Below, in pieces: positions 14,593 to 23,825 of a stretch of 64,000 nt of DNA (positions are counted from its first letter, which is position 1; each line of letters begins with the position of its first letter). Below the pieces are notes generated by a model. That model was not told the origin of the DNA. It saw only the letters and a program-made list of their open reading frames with translations, and did no database searches. This DNA is from a virus. Its lineage: Duplodnaviria > Heunggongvirae > Uroviricota > Caudoviricetes. Both the position numbers and the translations under genes were made by a program. The stretch is taken from the IMG/VR virus record IMGVR_UViG_2778261375_000003; one strand, written 5' to 3'.

Positions 14593-14948
14593 AGCACCAC
14601 GTCCTGTGTGATAGTTATATCCCTGATACGAATGGATATTTTCAACTTATCAAAAGCATCTCCCTCGGCTACTGACAAGCCAGAAATCGGTATGTCAGGT
14701 AAATCTACCGTCAGTTTTTGCAACAGCATTGCCTCAACCGCAATTTGAACATGCGACAAGTTGGTCGGTTCGTGTTTAAACTGCGGTAAAACATTGCCCC
14801 ATGACGGATCCCCGTATACCTCACCCTGATAAGTGTTTAGCCACTCATATAAACGAGCGCCCCAGGCCTCCTCCTGGGACTCATACGTTTTTACGCCGGA
14901 TAACTCCAGCGTCAGCAAAGGATCAATTTCGTTATTGTTGGCCATCAA
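14589..14948 (-). CDS. baseplate wedge protein (gp25 / W-like)
   Basis: 119-aa ORF; GEVYGDPSWGNVLPQF resembles the gp25/GPW core; overlaps the tape-measure stop. Confidence 0.5.
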   Translation of the reverse strand: MMANNNEIDPLLTLELSGVKTYESQEEAWGARLYEWLNTYQGEVYGDPSWGNVLPQFKHEPTNLSHVQIAVEAMLLQKLTVDLPDIPISGLSVAEGDAFDKLKISIRIRDITITQDVVL

Positions 14949-17900
14949 TCAACTCTCGCGTAGTCATTCATCAACGGATCATCAATTGACAGTGGTACCG
15001 TGCGCATAACGCCCGGCTGAGGCGTGCTGACCTTTACGACAGTTCCCTGGCCTTTCGCCGAGTCTTTGGTGTGCTCTTCAATCCTGGCAAGCAATGAGGC
15101 CATCTGCGCAAACAGCCGCTTCGTTTCACCATCAAGTGAAACGGTATTATCAGCCAACTGCATTGTCGGCTTGGCACCGGAGCCGCCAAGGTCACTAATA
15201 ACCTGTCCGTCTATCTGCATACGACCGGTTGGTTGCTGCAAATCGTTGGCGGCAGTCGTCACCTTGGACGTGGAGGCTGGTTCAGGCGCATTATTTTTCC
15301 GCATCCCCGGCGAGTTGCGGAGTTTATCGAATAGTCCATCAATCTCCATTTGTGCGCCGAGTTGGTCAAAGTAACTTGAGTTGTTGGCCACCGGACGCGC
15401 CTCTTCAACTGGCATCGGAGTATCAACATACACATTGCCAGCTGCTGTTGCGGTCCCCTTCCCTCGTGCACGTTCTTCGAGCGTTCCCTGAACGACTTCC
15501 CGACGCATACCCCGGCCATTCATGAATTTGTTGACCAGATCGTTAACGCCAACAGCATTGCCGATTTTGTCTACCAGACCGCCTTTCTCAAACGGGCTAT
15601 CACCAGGGGTAAATGCCAGGCCAGTAGACTGATCGATAACAGCGTTATCAGGCAGTGGTCCCCTCACTCCATATTGCGCCCCACCCTGTGCTCCTGCTCC
15701 AGGTGTATAGATTTCACCACCTAAATAGCGAGCACGATGAGTATTGACCTTGATCGCGTACTCACGGTTTTCTTTGGATAAGTCACCTGTGCCTTTTTTC
15801 CACTTATTGATAGTGCCAAACCCAGCGTTATATGCAGTGATGGCCTCGTTTAAGTCTCCATTGGCTTGCTTCAGATACTTGCTCATGAGAAGAGCCGCAG
15901 CTTCTGCCGATTTCACAGGATCAAACGATTCACCTTCAGCTAAGCCAGTCTCTTCACGAGCAATCCCCGTGAACTGAAACATTCCCAGAGCACCGGTTTG
16001 GGATTTTGCATACGGATTACCACCAGATTCAGTTGCAGCAATCGCGTAAAGAGTGCCTTCTGGAAGACCGTATTTATTCTCTAGTTCGGCAAAATACGGA
16101 GCCAACTTATCGAGATTTGCCTTACCTTCAGCGCCAAGACTTCCGACTTTTACATCTAAGTTGCCATTGTTGTAAGTATCCGCAGCTTTCTGAATGTCAT
16201 TCCTGGTGCCAGTAGTATTAAGCGACGATGATGATGAGCTATTTTGACCAATAGCATTATCAATTTTCTGCAACGCGCTATTGCCCGTTTCTACGGCATT
16301 TGCATTGATAATCTGATTGGCAGTTTCTTTAACTGTTTTATTGCTATCTTTCGCCGTATCTAGGGATGCATTTACAACACGAGTGACAATATTAGCCTTT
16401 TTAGGGGTATATTCAGTCTTAGGAGCATTGTCCTCCTGACTTTCTTTAGCTGGTGTTTTTAATTCAGGTGTAACCTCTTTCGCATCCGCTTTGTTGACTA
16501 GCTTTGATGCAACCCAGGCCACAGGGGTGCTCTGAACAGCGGCATCTGCAACCTCACCTGAAAGCTCTTTTGCGGCACTCCATAGATTACTGCCAGCTTC
16601 TTTAATGTATTTCCCTGGGTTCTTAATGAAATCAATTGCACTATCAATTGCATCACTGAAAACCTGTTTCAGGTTATCGACAGTAAAGAAGTTTTTGATG
16701 GCGTCTAATTTTTCGTTCAGGTTCTTTGTTGTGTCACTGAACCATGCTGAAATAGCATCACCAATCTTTGCAGTATAATCACTAAATGTCGTGGATATAG
16801 TATCACCAAGGTTAGAAATATATGTTTCTAAATTGGTAATCCCACTATCAATGGCCTGGGCAATACTTTCCGTCGAAAATGATTGCAACATATTGCCGAT
16901 ATCCTCAAATCCAAGTGATTTGAGAACGCCGCCAATGGCACTGCTAATACCAGATACCAGTCCTCCCATATCGAGAACGTTAGCCAGTGTATAAGCCGCT
17001 TTTTGCTGAAAAGATGGATCTTCCCCATCCTTAAGCCCAAAGGTCCGACGTTGTGCTTCTGTATCATTCCAACCGGTTACCGCATCATAGATACCTCCAG
17101 CCACCGTGCCGACTAGCGGAATTGCGCGTAAAGCCCCCTTTGCAAGAGCCTTAACACCTAGTTTCCCCAATCCCTTAGTTGCAAGTTTTCCGGCACCGCG
17201 AGTAGCCAATTCGCCAGCTTCTTTGGCAGCAGCTTTTTTCCCACCAAAGCCCAATAAGCTTGCAACTTTTTTTATACCTAAAGCGCCTAGTGCCATCGAG
17301 CCAACTTTCTTTAGTACCCCACGGCCAAAAATAAGGGAAGCAATACCACCGGCCCCCTTCCCTAACAGGCTAAATAGTTTGGACAGCAAGCCGCCCTTCT
17401 TTTTCCCGGTGTTTTTGGCTATCTGATCAAGGGCGCTGAGAATCTTGTCATTGCCCTCTTTAATTTCGCTGGTCTGCTCCTGAAGTTCCTGAACCGTCCG
17501 TTTTTGGGTGTTAACCTGAACGACATCGGCACTATTTTGCGATTTACGCCTAAAAAAACCTTTTCTACGGCTGTTATCGTCATTGCCACGAATCACATCG
17601 GCAATAGACTTTCTGGCACCATTAAGCGATCCACCAACTTCTTTTGATATCCCGCCAAGCTCCTTCCCTGCTGCCCACAATGGACCAGCAACGGCATAAC
17701 CTAACGCATCGACGGCACGAGTCTCTGAAGGGTTACCTATGCCTTCAGCTACTTTTGACAGTTTTTTTAATAAACCTGATTCAGCATTTAGACGCTCATC
17801 ATCCTCTTTGCGCCTGGCCTTTTCAGCACGTTCAGCACGGGCATCTTCCGCTGCGGCCTTACTCCCTGACTTTCCAATAAAACGACCACGCGCATCGCGT

Positions 17901-18640
17901 TGGTTTTGGCTTTTTTGCGCACCGCCTTTTTGATCGAACATTTTGCGAGCGTGTTCGGCTGCTTCGGTCCGTTGTGCCTTTATATCCTCTGGTATAGCCT
18001 TCCTGCGTCGTTTTTTACCCTTTGGTGTAGTTGATTTGGCCTGCTGTTCCTGTTGAGCAATGCCCTCCTGAACTACACGAGAAACGTCCCCTAAATTAAG
18101 CCGTTTCATTGCATCAACAATAGGGTCTACTGATGGCGCATTGGCCACAAAGTCTGGCCGGGAATTTTCGATTGTTCGATTTAATGCCGACACACTGCGA
18201 GATACTGGGTCAACCGTTGCAACGCGTTCCCCTTTCAAATCACGATCGAGTTTGACCGTTTCTAACCGCTGTGCTTTAACATCCTCTGTTATTGCCTCTC
18301 TTCGTCTATTTGGGGGATTGTGCGCTGTTGGTGCAGCCTGCTGTTCACGGTTAGTGACTTTGTCCTCCCGTATACGAGAAACGTCCCCTAAATTAAGCCG
18401 TTTCATTGCGTCAACAATAGAGTCCACTGATGGCGCATTGGTCACAAAGTCAGGACGTGAATTTTCGATTGTGCGATTTAATGCCGACACACTGCGAGAG
18501 ACAGGATCAACAGTTGCAACTCGTTCCCCTTTCAAATCTTCAACAGCTTCCCGAATACCTGCAAGCTCTTCCAGCTCTTTCGCGCTGGCGGTTTCAACTG
18601 TCCTTATAACATCGTCAATATTGGCGTTTTTTCTTTCCAT
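14945..18640 (-). CDS. sit: tape-measure / injection protein with lytic transglycosylase domain (Sit-like)
   Basis: 1231 aa; SLT motif YAIAATESGGNPYAKSQTGALGMFQF; Gly/Lys-rich repeats; internal duplicated segment near the N-terminus. Confidence 0.7.
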   Translation of the reverse strand: MERKNANIDDVIRTVETASAKELEELAGIREAVEDLKGERVATVDPVSRSVSALNRTIENSRPDFVTNAPSVDSIVDAMKRLNLGDVSRIREDKVTNREQQAAPTAHNPPNRRREAITEDVKAQRLETVKLDRDLKGERVATVDPVSRSVSALNRTIENSRPDFVANAPSVDPIVDAMKRLNLGDVSRVVQEGIAQQEQQAKSTTPKGKKRRRKAIPEDIKAQRTEAAEHARKMFDQKGGAQKSQNQRDARGRFIGKSGSKAAAEDARAERAEKARRKEDDERLNAESGLLKKLSKVAEGIGNPSETRAVDALGYAVAGPLWAAGKELGGISKEVGGSLNGARKSIADVIRGNDDNSRRKGFFRRKSQNSADVVQVNTQKRTVQELQEQTSEIKEGNDKILSALDQIAKNTGKKKGGLLSKLFSLLGKGAGGIASLIFGRGVLKKVGSMALGALGIKKVASLLGFGGKKAAAKEAGELATRGAGKLATKGLGKLGVKALAKGALRAIPLVGTVAGGIYDAVTGWNDTEAQRRTFGLKDGEDPSFQQKAAYTLANVLDMGGLVSGISSAIGGVLKSLGFEDIGNMLQSFSTESIAQAIDSGITNLETYISNLGDTISTTFSDYTAKIGDAISAWFSDTTKNLNEKLDAIKNFFTVDNLKQVFSDAIDSAIDFIKNPGKYIKEAGSNLWSAAKELSGEVADAAVQSTPVAWVASKLVNKADAKEVTPELKTPAKESQEDNAPKTEYTPKKANIVTRVVNASLDTAKDSNKTVKETANQIINANAVETGNSALQKIDNAIGQNSSSSSSLNTTGTRNDIQKAADTYNNGNLDVKVGSLGAEGKANLDKLAPYFAELENKYGLPEGTLYAIAATESGGNPYAKSQTGALGMFQFTGIAREETGLAEGESFDPVKSAEAAALLMSKYLKQANGDLNEAITAYNAGFGTINKWKKGTGDLSKENREYAIKVNTHRARYLGGEIYTPGAGAQGGAQYGVRGPLPDNAVIDQSTGLAFTPGDSPFEKGGLVDKIGNAVGVNDLVNKFMNGRGMRREVVQGTLEERARGKGTATAAGNVYVDTPMPVEEARPVANNSSYFDQLGAQMEIDGLFDKLRNSPGMRKNNAPEPASTSKVTTAANDLQQPTGRMQIDGQVISDLGGSGAKPTMQLADNTVSLDGETKRLFAQMASLLARIEEHTKDSAKGQGTVVKVSTPQPGVMRTVPLSIDDPLMNDYARVD

Positions 18641-20239: not shown

Positions 20240-20830
<591 letters not shown>

Positions 20831-20886
20831 TTAACAGATTCTACGAGTTGTCATTTGTGACAGTATGCTCGCAATCGTAGTGATTA

Positions 20887-21426
20887 CTACCACCAACTGC
20901 TAGCTTTCTTCTCTCTAGCTTTTCCTTCGCTTTGCAGTAAATCTTTACTTCCTGTAGAAATATTTCTATTTGCATCAGCCTCAGACTGAATTACATCTGT
21001 CTTAGCTGCTCTCTCCTTCAACTCCTGCTCTATAAAATCGTTTTCTCGCTGGACACGAGCCGCTTTTGCTTGCAGTTCGAGCTTCATGCTTTCGAGTTGC
21101 AGCTTGCGAAGCTCATCCTCATAAGCTTGATCTCGCTTCTTGTCATTTGCTAGCTCGGCTTCTCGTTTCGCTCTACGTTCATTTTCTGCAGCAACACGCT
21201 GTTTTTCGCGTGCAGCAGCGGCAGATGCTGCTTTTTCTCTTCTAATACGTTCAGCTTGTGCTTGTTGGCGAATAAGTTCTTTTCTGGCATCCTCAGCTTG
21301 CTGCTCTTTAGCTCGCCCTTCATTTTCCGCTTGAGCAATAGCAGCAATTTGACTTTGCAACGAGTTAGCCAAGGCAGTGCCTACACTAAACGTAGAAAAG
21401 ATTAGAAATAAAATAATTTTATTCAT
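20887..21426 (-). CDS. secreted coiled-coil protein, Ala/Glu/Arg/Gln-rich
   Basis: N-terminal signal-like segment MNKIILFLIFSTFSVGTALA; remainder is low-complexity charged helix. Confidence 0.5.
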   Translation of the reverse strand: MNKIILFLIFSTFSVGTALANSLQSQIAAIAQAENEGRAKEQQAEDARKELIRQQAQAERIRREKAASAAAAREKQRVAAENERRAKREAELANDKKRDQAYEDELRKLQLESMKLELQAKAARVQRENDFIEQELKERAAKTDVIQSEADANRNISTGSKDLLQSEGKAREKKASSWW

Positions 21427-21429
21427 AAA

Positions 21430-21951
21430 TTATTTCTTTTCTGGACAAGTAGCATTTGGCTGAATTCGAGTTTCATTATCTTTAGTTGAAATAAGCACAG
21501 CAAGCCCCGTTGTAAACTGGCATGCTTTACCAACTTGAGTTGAAGTGAACACCTTAGTTCCTTCTTTATAAGTCAGTGAAACACCTTCAACAATTGTTTT
21601 ATCACTAACCAAAGAACCAGCCGCTGCACCAAGAGCCGCACCACCAGTACCGCCAGCTACAGCACCCAGTGTCGATGTGCCTTTAACATTATAACCGGCA
21701 ACGCCCCCAGCAACAGCTCCCAGTACCGCACCAAATGTCTGTGCCGCTTCTTTATTAGCTTTATTATCAACTTTCACTTTAGCTGGAAGCACAGAGATAA
21801 TATTGACTGTCTTTGTTTCCTGCTTCGAATTCAATTGAGCGGTATCATAAACATCGGCAGCATAATCAGCACCGCTAGATTGACACCCAGAAAGAAGAAT
21901 TGCAGATACAACAAGAGCGCATAAAGTATACTTTTTAGACATAAGAATCAT
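21430..21951 (-). CDS. glycine-zipper lipoprotein
   Basis: Lipobox-like LLSGC near the N-terminus; GxxxG-rich segment GAVLGAVAGGVAGY...GAVAGGTGGAALGAAAG. Confidence 0.55.
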   Translation of the reverse strand: MILMSKKYTLCALVVSAILLSGCQSSGADYAADVYDTAQLNSKQETKTVNIISVLPAKVKVDNKANKEAAQTFGAVLGAVAGGVAGYNVKGTSTLGAVAGGTGGAALGAAAGSLVSDKTIVEGVSLTYKEGTKVFTSTQVGKACQFTTGLAVLISTKDNETRIQPNATCPEKK

Positions 21952-22232
21952 CCCAGAAAAACAAAAACCGGCGAGAAGTTACCACGAGAACGGAAAGTAA
22001 ACAAGAATACTCCCATTGACTTATATCAATTAATCAACTTTTTATAAGCTATCCCTAACTTATTGTGTATAGCTGAAAAGTCAGAGACAAGTTCACCATC
22101 TGCATTATTTCTTAAGTTAATAGTTTATTGCTAACTTAATTTATGTATCGACTATTGATATCCATCTTAAAGTTACAATATCCCTCTGCATTATTTTTCA
22201 TCACAAATAATATATCTATTGCACTACACTCA

Positions 22233-22249
22233 CCTGCTCTAATAAATTT
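22233..22249 (+). promoter_or_regulatory. C1-type repressor operator upstream of the icd-ant operon
   Basis: CCTGCTCTAATAAATTT, 15/17 match to the P1 C1 operator consensus ATTGCTCTAATAAATTT (consensus from memory). Confidence 0.5.
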
Positions 22250-22563
22250 GTATTTTTAAGTCACAAATGCTATCTTTTCGCATCATATTGACCTTTTAAT
22301 CGTTCAGGCTTATAGTTCCGCCGTCGTAGCAAATTCTGCGACCGGGTTTAGCAGCCTGAATGATTGTGCGGACAGCCGCAGATATCCGATATTGCGGTAT
22401 TTTTGTGTCCGTAAAACCGTGTTACGCCCAAATTATGGTGGGGCGTGATGGGGAGGCTTCGGCCTGCTGGTTTCACAATCGCCAGTCTGCTAACCCCGTC
22501 ACGTCCTGCCACCTGTTTAGCAGCGGGTAGCAGGTTGTTAAACCTGATTGTGAGGCCGTAACT

Positions 22564-22785
22564 ATGGTTAATGCCAATCCTTGCGCACGCCAAGAATTCA
22601 TCTGGCGTTTCTATTCCTGTAAAAAACACCACTATCACTTCGTCATCGCAGCAACAGAAGACGAAGCACGCTCTCAATTGCCTGATGGCCCCTGCATTTT
22701 TACTGCCCGTTTTTCAACTAACTCGCGCAATTCACTTAGTTACTGGAACCTCCCCTTCTCTGCCGACGTTCAGGGGGATTTATGA
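22564..22785 (+). CDS. icd: Icd-like small protein
   Basis: 73-aa ORF whose stop overlaps the antirepressor start (ATGA), as I recall for P1 icd-ant1. Confidence 0.4.
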   Translation: MVNANPCARQEFIWRFYSCKKHHYHFVIAATEDEARSQLPDGPCIFTARFSTNSRNSLSYWNLPFSADVQGDL

Positions 22786-23825
22786 AAAAACCTCTCGTCA
22801 CCCGTAATGAAATAGCCGAAGCGATCGCCCTGCATACAACCTGTATGCCGACACGGGAGATCCCCGGCGCAATTGCCAACTATTTCATGATAACCAGACG
22901 TTTTTATACCCGAACAGATAAGGCTGTGATCAACAAGCTACTGATAGCCGAGATCAGGGATTATTTGATTGAACAAGGACGTCTACGTTACGCAACAGTG
23001 GCAGCAGAAATGAGAAAGGAGGCGCGCAGAATGACCGGTAATAATTTGAATGTTGAAAAACCAGCACCTGTTGCTTCAGCTACGCCATCACCAGCTGTGA
23101 ATGTTATCTCCAACACTGGAGACACAATCGACAGCCAGACACTGTTAAAGATGGTCAATGAAGCTCGTAAGTTATGTGGGGAACCAGAGGTTCGGAACAA
23201 CAAATTCATCGAAAAAATACTCGACGAATTAGAAGGTGAGGACGGTTACACAAAAAGTGCAACCGTGCCGCCAGGTGGCGGTACGCCTATGGTTGTCATA
23301 ACCATGACCTACAAACAAGCCCTGCGAGTCGCCGCACGCGAATCAAAAGCCGTCCGCCGTTCGCTGATCGACAAACTGGAAGAATTGCAGCAGGCAAACT
23401 CCCCTGCCCCATCGATCCCCCAAACATTACCAGAAGCTCTACGCCTGGCTGCCGAGTTGGCAGAACAGAAAATGCAGCTGGAACAACAGCTGGTGGCCGC
23501 CGCTCCTAAAGTCGATTTTGCCGACCGGGTATCAGTGGCTAATGGAATCCTGATCGGGAACTTTGCAAAGGTCGTTGGACTTAAGCAAAACGCCCTTTTC
23601 TCATGGTTGCGCCAGAACGGCATTCTCATGGCTTTTGGTGCGCGCAAAAACGTACCGCGCCAACAGTACATCAACGCCGGGTATTTCACGGTGAAAGAAG
23701 TGGTGCTGGATGATGAAAATGGCTACCAGATACGGCTGACGCCCCAATTAACGGGTAAAGGCCAGCAGTGGTTAACTCGCAAGCTACTTGATGCTGGTTT
23801 GTTAAAACCAGTAGCAATAGGTTAA
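22782..23825 (+). CDS. ant1: antirepressor with KilA-C-like C-terminal domain
   Basis: C-terminal PEALRLAAELAEQK...YFT...TGKGQQWL block is repeated in the next gene; typical phage antirepressor architecture. Confidence 0.6.
   Translation: MKKPLVTRNEIAEAIALHTTCMPTREIPGAIANYFMITRRFYTRTDKAVINKLLIAEIRDYLIEQGRLRYATVAAEMRKEARRMTGNNLNVEKPAPVASATPSPAVNVISNTGDTIDSQTLLKMVNEARKLCGEPEVRNNKFIEKILDELEGEDGYTKSATVPPGGGTPMVVITMTYKQALRVAARESKAVRRSLIDKLEELQQANSPAPSIPQTLPEALRLAAELAEQKMQLEQQLVAAAPKVDFADRVSVANGILIGNFAKVVGLKQNALFSWLRQNGILMAFGARKNVPRQQYINAGYFTVKEVVLDDENGYQIRLTPQLTGKGQQWLTRKLLDAGLLKPVAIG

Follow-up and report, generated by a model that had tools for sequence, protein, structure and literature searches.

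What would a temperate phage gain from carrying, next to its tail genes, two small genes whose products are addressed to the cell envelope? The question is raised by positions 20,887 to 21,951 of a 64,000-nucleotide (nt) stretch of caudoviral DNA (IMG/VR record IMGVR_UViG_2778261375_000003; hereafter the window), where two minus-strand open reading frames (ORFs) follow each other closely. The surrounding region (20700–22800) is 99.3% identical to phage P7 and 99.5% identical to phage phi456, and collinear with many P1-like phage-plasmids; backed by the downstream minus-strand genes pmgC, tub, pmgB and sit (PHROG matches), this identifies the element as a P7-type P1-like phage-plasmid (Punavirus). 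In the P7 record, the same locus is annotated as upf50.5 and upf50.0, upstream of the late promoter LPsit, of unknown function and similar to E. coli K-12 proteins. Judged by sequence, the two genes are a diverged, phage-plasmid copy of the E. coli envelope pair yfgH–yfgI. The annotation of the genes in P7 and the variability of the locus were already known; added here are the borders of the exchanged cassette, the homology to SlyB, a predicted single-helix fold for the partner protein, the recurrence of the pair in unrelated temperate phages, data on selection and a corrected operon layout.

A YfgH-like lipoprotein and its YfgI-like partner

The upstream ORF had been predicted to encode a glycine-zipper lipoprotein, and indeed its product carries an LSGC lipobox (residues 20–23) and a Gly/Ala-rich segment (residues 74–113, 60% G+A). 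Among 37 aligned homologues, Cys23 never varies and Gly22 hardly does; Cys144 and Cys169 are likewise invariant, which suggests a disulphide formed in an oxidising compartment. Translation from the ATG at 21951 yields 173 amino acids (aa), and an alternative ATG at 21942 (MSKKY…) has GGGA 8 nt upstream. The protein is 67% identical to K-12 YfgH (172 aa). A YfgH-family profile matched SlyB (PDB 7ojf) over the full length (residues 9–162, E 2.8e-9), a relationship reached only by this profile and not by a single-sequence search of the PDB, which returned no meaningful match for either protein of the pair; the match to Pfam PF05433 was sub-threshold (18.2 bits versus 24.2). The AlphaFold2 monomer model is of low confidence (predicted local distance difference test, pLDDT, 54.5) and was used only for the order of secondary-structure elements and for a Foldseek check. 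The order is a strand, helices 64–88 and 94–113 across the glycine zipper, and then further strands. In agreement with the sequence profile, its top Foldseek match was SlyB (E 2e-6, template-modelling (TM) scores 0.50/0.60), followed by a non-significant match to TraT (9fsm_A; E 0.2, TM 0.27/0.21). By its lipobox, zipper hairpin and full-length homology, the protein is best assigned to the YfgH/SlyB-like glycine-zipper family. The sole sequence hint on its localisation is the +2 residue, a Gln in place of an Asp-type inner-membrane retention signal; because Gln at this position gives no Lol-avoidance signal, we infer sorting to the outer membrane.

The downstream ORF had been described as encoding a signal-peptide-bearing, Ala/Glu/Arg-rich coiled-coil protein. 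Signal peptide (…GTALA, cleaved before NS) and composition (65% A+E+R+K+Q in the mature part, with neither Pro nor Cys) held up; as to the coiled coil, only a long helix is predicted, AlphaFold2 folding the protein as a single uninterrupted helix over residues 3–178 (pLDDT 88). By arithmetic from this predicted helix, the ~157 helical residues of the mature protein would extend over ~23 nm at 0.15 nm each, a length comparable to the width of the periplasm. The partner matches Pfam PF17358 (DUF5384) with 147.8 bits (cut-off 25, E 3e-43) over profile positions 4–145 of 145, and is 47% identical to K-12 YfgI, which is likewise 179 aa long; conservation resides in the C-terminal ~85 residues, the N-terminal half being variable. 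Given the lipobox in one protein and the Sec signal peptide in the other, both are exported. These signals, together with the dispensability for lytic growth of the P1 genes in the same slot, agree with the original prediction of an envelope-targeted pair that is not part of the virion.

Strong homologues of both ORFs (DUF5384 at 3e-43; relatives in the hundreds) show them to be real genes rather than chance ORFs. The cassette that holds them shares ~69% nucleotide identity with chromosomal yfgI–yfgH, present in 5420 of 5426 complete E. coli genomes, so that the phage copy is an addition to the one of the host. The chromosomal pair, located next to guaA, has the same gene order, matching protein lengths (172/179 versus 173/179 aa), and in common with the window pair the lipobox, the glycine zipper, the two conserved Cys, the signal peptide and the conserved C-terminal module. 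The window pair differs in residing on a phage-plasmid within a swap cassette, and the upstream regions have no detectable similarity; the two pairs diverge most in the loop that joins the zipper helices and, for the YfgI-like protein, in its N-terminal half. A BLASTP comparison of both proteins with all six-frame ORFs of the window gave no match, and thus no mimicry of a virion protein. No family of the defence catalogue PADLOC-DB 2.0 matched either protein at E <= 0.01, and a literature search on upf50.x found nothing relevant.

Existing labels of the two genes were rejected. 'DNA methyltransferase', attached to the lipoprotein (phrog_1277; RefSeq NC_050152, NC_042128 and NC_031129 listed), is a misannotation of a protein that has a lipobox and a glycine zipper and no methyltransferase domain. 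Similarly, 'minor tail protein' and 'tail tip protein', given to the pair in one phage record, correspond to no such domain. Wrong labels of the pair have spread through PHROGs and RefSeq phage records.

An exchangeable cassette between LPsit and Oc4

Homology to P1 ends at 20858 and resumes at 22235, and P7 is collinear across this interval, which delimits the cassette (Table 1). Its left junction is identical in four cassette variants, and the slot lies between LPsit and the C1 operator Oc4, as does P1 simABC. LPsit, which drives pmgC–tub–pmgB–sit and forms the left edge of the slot, is matched exactly in the window and invariant across the four variants. The pair had been taken for the last two genes of the tail operon. 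Instead, the two are the most upstream minus-strand genes, parted from pmgC by LPsit, and since they lie upstream of this promoter they form a separate unit and not the end of that operon. The long AT-rich stretch thought to follow the pair (21960–22330) is indeed non-coding over 21952–22234, but it precedes the pair, as minus-strand transcription runs from high to low coordinates. Nor is it uniform: up to 22234 it belongs to the cassette, and from 22233 onwards come Oc4, the c4 promoter and the C4 targets of the divergent immI operon. Oc4 controls this divergent c4–icd–ant operon, and the plus-strand neighbours are the C4 antisense RNA with its a1/b1 targets, then icd, ant1/2 and kilA (Rfam, ORFs, P7 annotation).

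Table 1 Features in and around the swap cassette (window coordinates; GC, guanine plus cytosine)
Feature	Position	Strand	Details
YfgH-like, predicted outer-membrane lipoprotein gene (P7 upf50.5), 173 aa	21430..21951	-	ORF, P7 identity, homology
YfgI-like secreted DUF5384 protein gene (P7 upf50.0), 179 aa	20887..21426	-	starts 3 nt past lipoprotein stop codon
Whole swap cassette, 1376 bp, 40.5% GC	20859..22234	-	replaces 1513-bp simC-simB-simA cassette of P1
AT-rich upstream region of the cassette, presumed promoter site	21952..22234	-	non-coding, 31.8% GC versus 47.7% for the window
Late promoter LPsit	20838..20858	-	-22 box ACAAATGAC 20858-20850, -10 TAGAAT 20843-20838; P7 and P1 annotations
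Conserved hairpin	20813..20847	-	LPsit -10 in 5' arm; most of pmgC Shine-Dalgarno in 3' arm
C1 repressor operator Oc4, right edge of slot	22233..22249	+	mapped from P7 annotation, no indels
immI leader	22288..22516	+	promoter-like TTGACC-17-TATAGT 22288-22316 (promoter scan)
C4 targets a1/b1; C4 antisense RNA	22310-22362; 22431-22516	+	Rfam RF03163 55.5 bits, RF01695 69.6 bits

The left edge of the slot also holds a predicted RNA structure. The minus-strand segment 20795–20890 folds with -30.3 kcal/mol (z = -5.5), and the hairpin is kept in P1 and the other cassette variants; the pmgC Shine–Dalgarno sequence GAGG occupies 20815–20812, with G20812 just past the hairpin arm. RNA beginning at ~20832 is predicted to be unstructured. 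In this model, read-through from the cassette would hide the pmgC ribosome-binding site, and late transcripts starting inside the hairpin would not.

Upstream of the cassette, a search for a second late-promoter -22 box gave, at 2 mismatches, 198 matches versus 223 expected, and exact copies of the box occur in the window only at LPsit and at 53703–53711. A near-palindrome, TTGATATAAGTCAA (TTGAT-ATAA-GTCAA), lies at 22029–22016 on the minus strand, 87 nt upstream of the lipoprotein start codon. In two mobile copies of the pair, whose upstream regions otherwise barely align, TTGAC-N4-GTCAA is found at a similar distance, at -77 (L014) and -88 (L010) relative to the start codon. The TTGA-N6-TCAA form resembles FNR/CRP-family sites; taking the window alone, 78 of 2000 shuffles score as high as the palindrome at 22016–22029.

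Across PLSDB plasmids with both flanks, the slot holds at least three cassette classes: sim, the present type (168 of 628 matching plasmid records) and a third encoding proteins of 224 aa and 158 aa. Every product seen in the three types starts with a signal peptide. The proteins of the pair are without sequence similarity to those of the third cassette, and likewise to SimA, SimB and SimC (best BLASTP E 0.26, no nucleotide similarity). Scored by the adjacent tub–pmgC region, 482–509 of the 5426 complete E. coli genomes bear a P1-like element; the present cassette was found in 183 of these (~38%), and 165 records of complete E. coli genomes hold it at an identity of at least 99%. As for P1, simABC, known as its superimmunity or superinfection-exclusion locus, is one of eight variable low-GC regions in P1-like elements (PMC9603915), the sim genes were non-essential in a CRISPR interference (CRISPRi) screen (PMC10695390), and Sim is cited as keeping the DNA of superinfecting phages from the cytoplasm (PMC8546580).

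The other occupants of the slot are of interest in their own right. Residues 131–177 of the secreted 224-aa protein of the third cassette (L004:1354–2028, minus strand) match a C-terminal segment of Sit, the injection/tape-measure protein encoded at 14945–18640 of the window (23/47 identical, E 7e-9), with the motif GMRxxxVQGTLEERARGxGT; judging by this likeness, it is plausible that the protein serves as a periplasmic Sit decoy blocking injection by related phages. P1 SimA (52 aa; L002:3943–4101) matches the N-terminal 50 residues of this 224-aa protein with 90% identity, so that simA looks like a truncated remnant of recombination between cassettes. In a Salmonella Agona P1-like plasmid (L007:6096–7304), a gene for TnpB, a member of the RNA-guided endonuclease family, is inserted in the slot, with the sim genes on one side and c4 on the other. 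The slot of an E. albertii P1-like element (L014:3032–7298) is enlarged and mosaic: besides a diverged yfgHI allele, it encodes 118 aa of the Sit-motif protein as a fragment, a YfjT-like protein related to the 158-aa product of the third cassette, and a protein of 389 aa with an SH3 domain.

Recurrence of the pair and selection on it

In the window as in all eight other contexts mapped (L003, L008, L010, L012 and L014–L017), the DUF5384 gene directly follows that of the lipoprotein. Gene maps located the pair at the chromosomal locus, in a transposase-rich island, in a Salmonella prophage between anti-repressor and tail-fibre genes, on an Enterobacter contig with a Tad2-like gene, where an E. 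coli prophage ends, next to its tail genes and a PLD nuclease gene, and on two ~100-kb Salmonella contigs, one with replication, exonuclease and tail-fibre genes and the other with a primase (Toprim) and ParA. In the E. albertii P1-like element, the diverged allele (lipoprotein 88% identical) occupies the same slot as in the window, next to third-cassette fragments. In L015 (3104–4378), the pair adjoins a 424-aa PLD-family protein resembling the defence nucleases DpdK and DrmC (E 1.6e-8), which suggests the region to be an accessory or defence hotspot.

In a neighbour-joining tree, mobile copies fall into several separate clades, and the window allele does not branch with the chromosomal gene of E. 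coli. As far as sequences tell, the pair belongs to a separate, mostly mobile clade; with synonymous sites saturated, it is no recent copy of the E. coli genes. Where synonymous divergence (dS) was measurable, the ratio of non-synonymous to synonymous divergence (dN/dS) was 0.06–0.09; even a comparison of the two P1-slot alleles puts dS at or near saturation, though their flanks are well conserved. Saturated dS between conserved flanks, combined with low dN/dS, indicates that alleles have been exchanged by recombination and kept under purifying selection.

Further candidate carriers were discarded. The record of phage TL-2011b (L013) ends with a yfgG-like (DUF2633) gene followed by yfgH/yfgI-like genes, that is, with host flank, and dozens of IMG/VR matches to YfgI at 47% identity (L041–L097) lie 532–1065 nt from the ends of ~40-kb prophage contigs and are chromosomal flanks as well. 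These records represent prophages inserted beside yfgI/guaA, and not phage cargo.

Possible functions in the lysogen

The relatives of the lipoprotein offer the best guide to what the pair might do. According to a December 2025 preprint, YfgH stabilises the outer membrane, its deletion causes sensitivity to sodium dodecyl sulfate (SDS)/ethylenediaminetetraacetic acid (EDTA) and higher outer-membrane permeability, and its overexpression rescues knock-downs of outer-membrane biogenesis. YfgH co-purifies with OmpA/C/F, BamA and LptD, an earlier genetic map ties yfgH to lptD and outer-membrane integrity, and the Salmonella Typhi yfgHI orthologues srgIL are induced by SdiA. SlyB, which is induced by PhoPQ and forms rings around lipids and outer-membrane proteins (PDB 7OJF/7OJG), has the lipobox, a β-strand, the glycine-zipper helical hairpin and a β-domain in common with the window protein. 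On the other hand, identity is ~25%, SlyB has no DUF5384 partner gene, and a ring of the window protein would be expected only by likeness; SlyB and YfgH also differ in their genetic suppressors (the Mla pathway for slyB, clsA for yfgH).

With moderate confidence, we read the pair as a self-contained accessory ('moron') cassette for lysogenic conversion of the outer membrane, and rank protection from membrane stress first because the two proteins are close, constrained paralogues of a stabiliser whose overexpression protects. In such a scheme, the lipoprotein would be exported by Sec and acylated at Cys23, its glycine-zipper helical hairpin would insert in the outer membrane, and it may form rings of the SlyB/YfgH type, with lipids and outer-membrane proteins corralled inside. 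The partner would form a periplasmic helical rod, whose conserved C-terminal module probably docks on the ring or on another envelope component. With expression driven by its own upstream region and not tied to late transcription, the pair would provide the lysogen with an extra dose of both proteins; the outcome would most probably be a higher tolerance of membrane stress (detergent, chelator, host-derived damage), with less entry of other phages as a possible side effect.

Several points weigh against this reading. Expression of the cassette in lysogens is something we infer: a promoter scan returned 3 sites versus 4.1 expected from shuffles, none above chance, including the single sigma-70-like minus-strand site at 22218..22190 (9/12), and as sites are no more frequent than in shuffles, no promoter is claimed. 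The lipoprotein model is of low confidence, and the ring is putative even for chromosomal YfgH. Regarding the partner, a literature search found no paper mentioning DUF5384 and no DUF5384 protein with known function, and the only phenotype found for YfgI is that a yfgI mutant is sensitive to nalidixic acid. With yfgHI already present in the host, the gain from a second, 67%-identical copy is not obvious. Finally, the other occupants of the slot, P1 Sim and the secreted Sit-motif protein, point to exclusion over host fitness.

It is these other tenants, along with the precedent of TraT, that place second the possible, though rather less probable, reading of the pair as a dedicated superinfection-exclusion module functionally replacing P1 Sim. 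A ring might cage or mask receptors (outer-membrane proteins or lipopolysaccharide), or ring and rod might obstruct the incoming tail tube, Sit and DNA as they cross the periplasm. As with SimA, SimB and SimC, whose genes are non-essential for lytic growth, the pair occupies exactly the LPsit–Oc4 slot on the same strand, with signal peptides on all products; the P1 product is reported to block DNA entry, every alternative cassette seen encodes signal-peptide proteins, and the Sit motif in one of them suggests a slot devoted to the injection step. The pair also recurs in prophages at positions typical of accessory genes, beside tail-fibre genes, an anti-repressor and a defence-like PLD nuclease, and the YfgH partners OmpA/C/F, BamA and LptD include common phage receptors. 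Yet the cassette has two genes versus three in P1, the proteins share no similarity with SimA, SimB, SimC or the third-cassette products, and PADLOC returned no match for them. The strong purifying selection, and a housekeeping-type stabiliser as 67%-identical relative, speak for an ancestral activity that was kept and not for a new specificity. Moreover, P1 and P7 form plaques on lysogens of each other, in which case P1 would not be kept out by a single copy.

TraT, the surface-exclusion lipoprotein of IncF plasmids (PDB 9FSM), is instructive here as an outer-membrane lipoprotein ring of chromosomal origin that was taken up by plasmids (PMC11733297). It was the second Foldseek match of the window lipoprotein and a sub-threshold Pfam match, with weak similarity over the Gly-rich region. 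At 23.1 bits versus a cut-off of 31 for PF05818, and a Foldseek E of 0.2, this likeness does not make the lipoprotein a family member; TraT further differs in acting on conjugation and in lacking a partner protein. A parallel from phages themselves is provided by Llp (T5), Cor (phi80/N15) and Bor (lambda), small phage-encoded outer-membrane lipoproteins that change the host surface, each of them a small protein on its own that lacks both the glycine-zipper hairpin and a helical partner. FhuA is bound by Llp and blocked by Cor; Bor makes the host resistant to serum.

A tentative and rather doubtful extension of this idea is that yfgH–yfgI has been captured repeatedly by temperate phages as an exclusion device, a SlyB-type ring tied to a periplasm-spanning rod that would cage receptor proteins or stop tail tube and DNA on their way through the periplasm, in a phage counterpart of the co-option of TraT. 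If true, the P1 sim slot would be a hotspot of interchangeable, mechanistically different entry blockers (Sim, the Sit-mimic protein and YfgHI). Exclusion and membrane remodelling had both been put forward in the original prediction; the sim slot and the YfgH/SlyB-like paralogy lend support to that joint proposal, and stress protection and exclusion are not mutually exclusive.

Two further readings fit the data poorly. That the pair are neutral passengers, a fragment of an enterobacterial chromosome captured in a tolerant region, would be in line with the variable, low-GC nature of the sim region (PMC9603915), the non-essential genes of the P1 slot and the landing there of an insertion sequence (IS)-type TnpB. 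We consider it improbable, given a dN/dS of 0.06–0.09 between mobile alleles near synonymous saturation, intact ORFs in the copies inspected, a cassette at least 99% identical in 165 records and present in over a third of P1-like elements, a diverged allele in the same slot, and independent acquisition by at least three other phage backbones in a polyphyletic tree. A structural or lytic role, as tail or virion assembly factors or late envelope-disruption helpers, is very improbable: the pair adjoins pmgC–tub–pmgB–sit on the same strand and bears tail-protein labels in one record, but late transcription starts after the pair, at LPsit, Sec and lipoprotein signals lead away from cytoplasmic virion assembly, P1 makes virions without the pair, and read-through would fold the pmgC ribosome-binding site into the hairpin.

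About 9% of complete E. coli genomes contain a P1-like phage-plasmid, and the cassette is present in over a third of these elements. Should the favoured reading hold and the pair strengthen the outer membrane, a common mobile element would alter the permeability and stress tolerance of its host, with a bearing on antibiotic and detergent susceptibility and on gut fitness. Should it block phage entry, it would represent a new exclusion mechanism built on SlyB-type rings and the first function for DUF5384. In addition, the phage copy is a naturally portable handle for the study of YfgH and YfgI, whose biology is only just being described.

Beyond the cassette, a direct-repeat search revealed a 297-bp direct duplication within sit (14945–18640) that was missed by Tandem Repeats Finder; the copies, at 18030–18241 and 18327–18538, are 84% identical. 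As a result of the duplication, the Sit product has 1231 aa versus 1130 aa in P7. With Sit annotated as a putative tail ruler, the tail of this phage could be longer.

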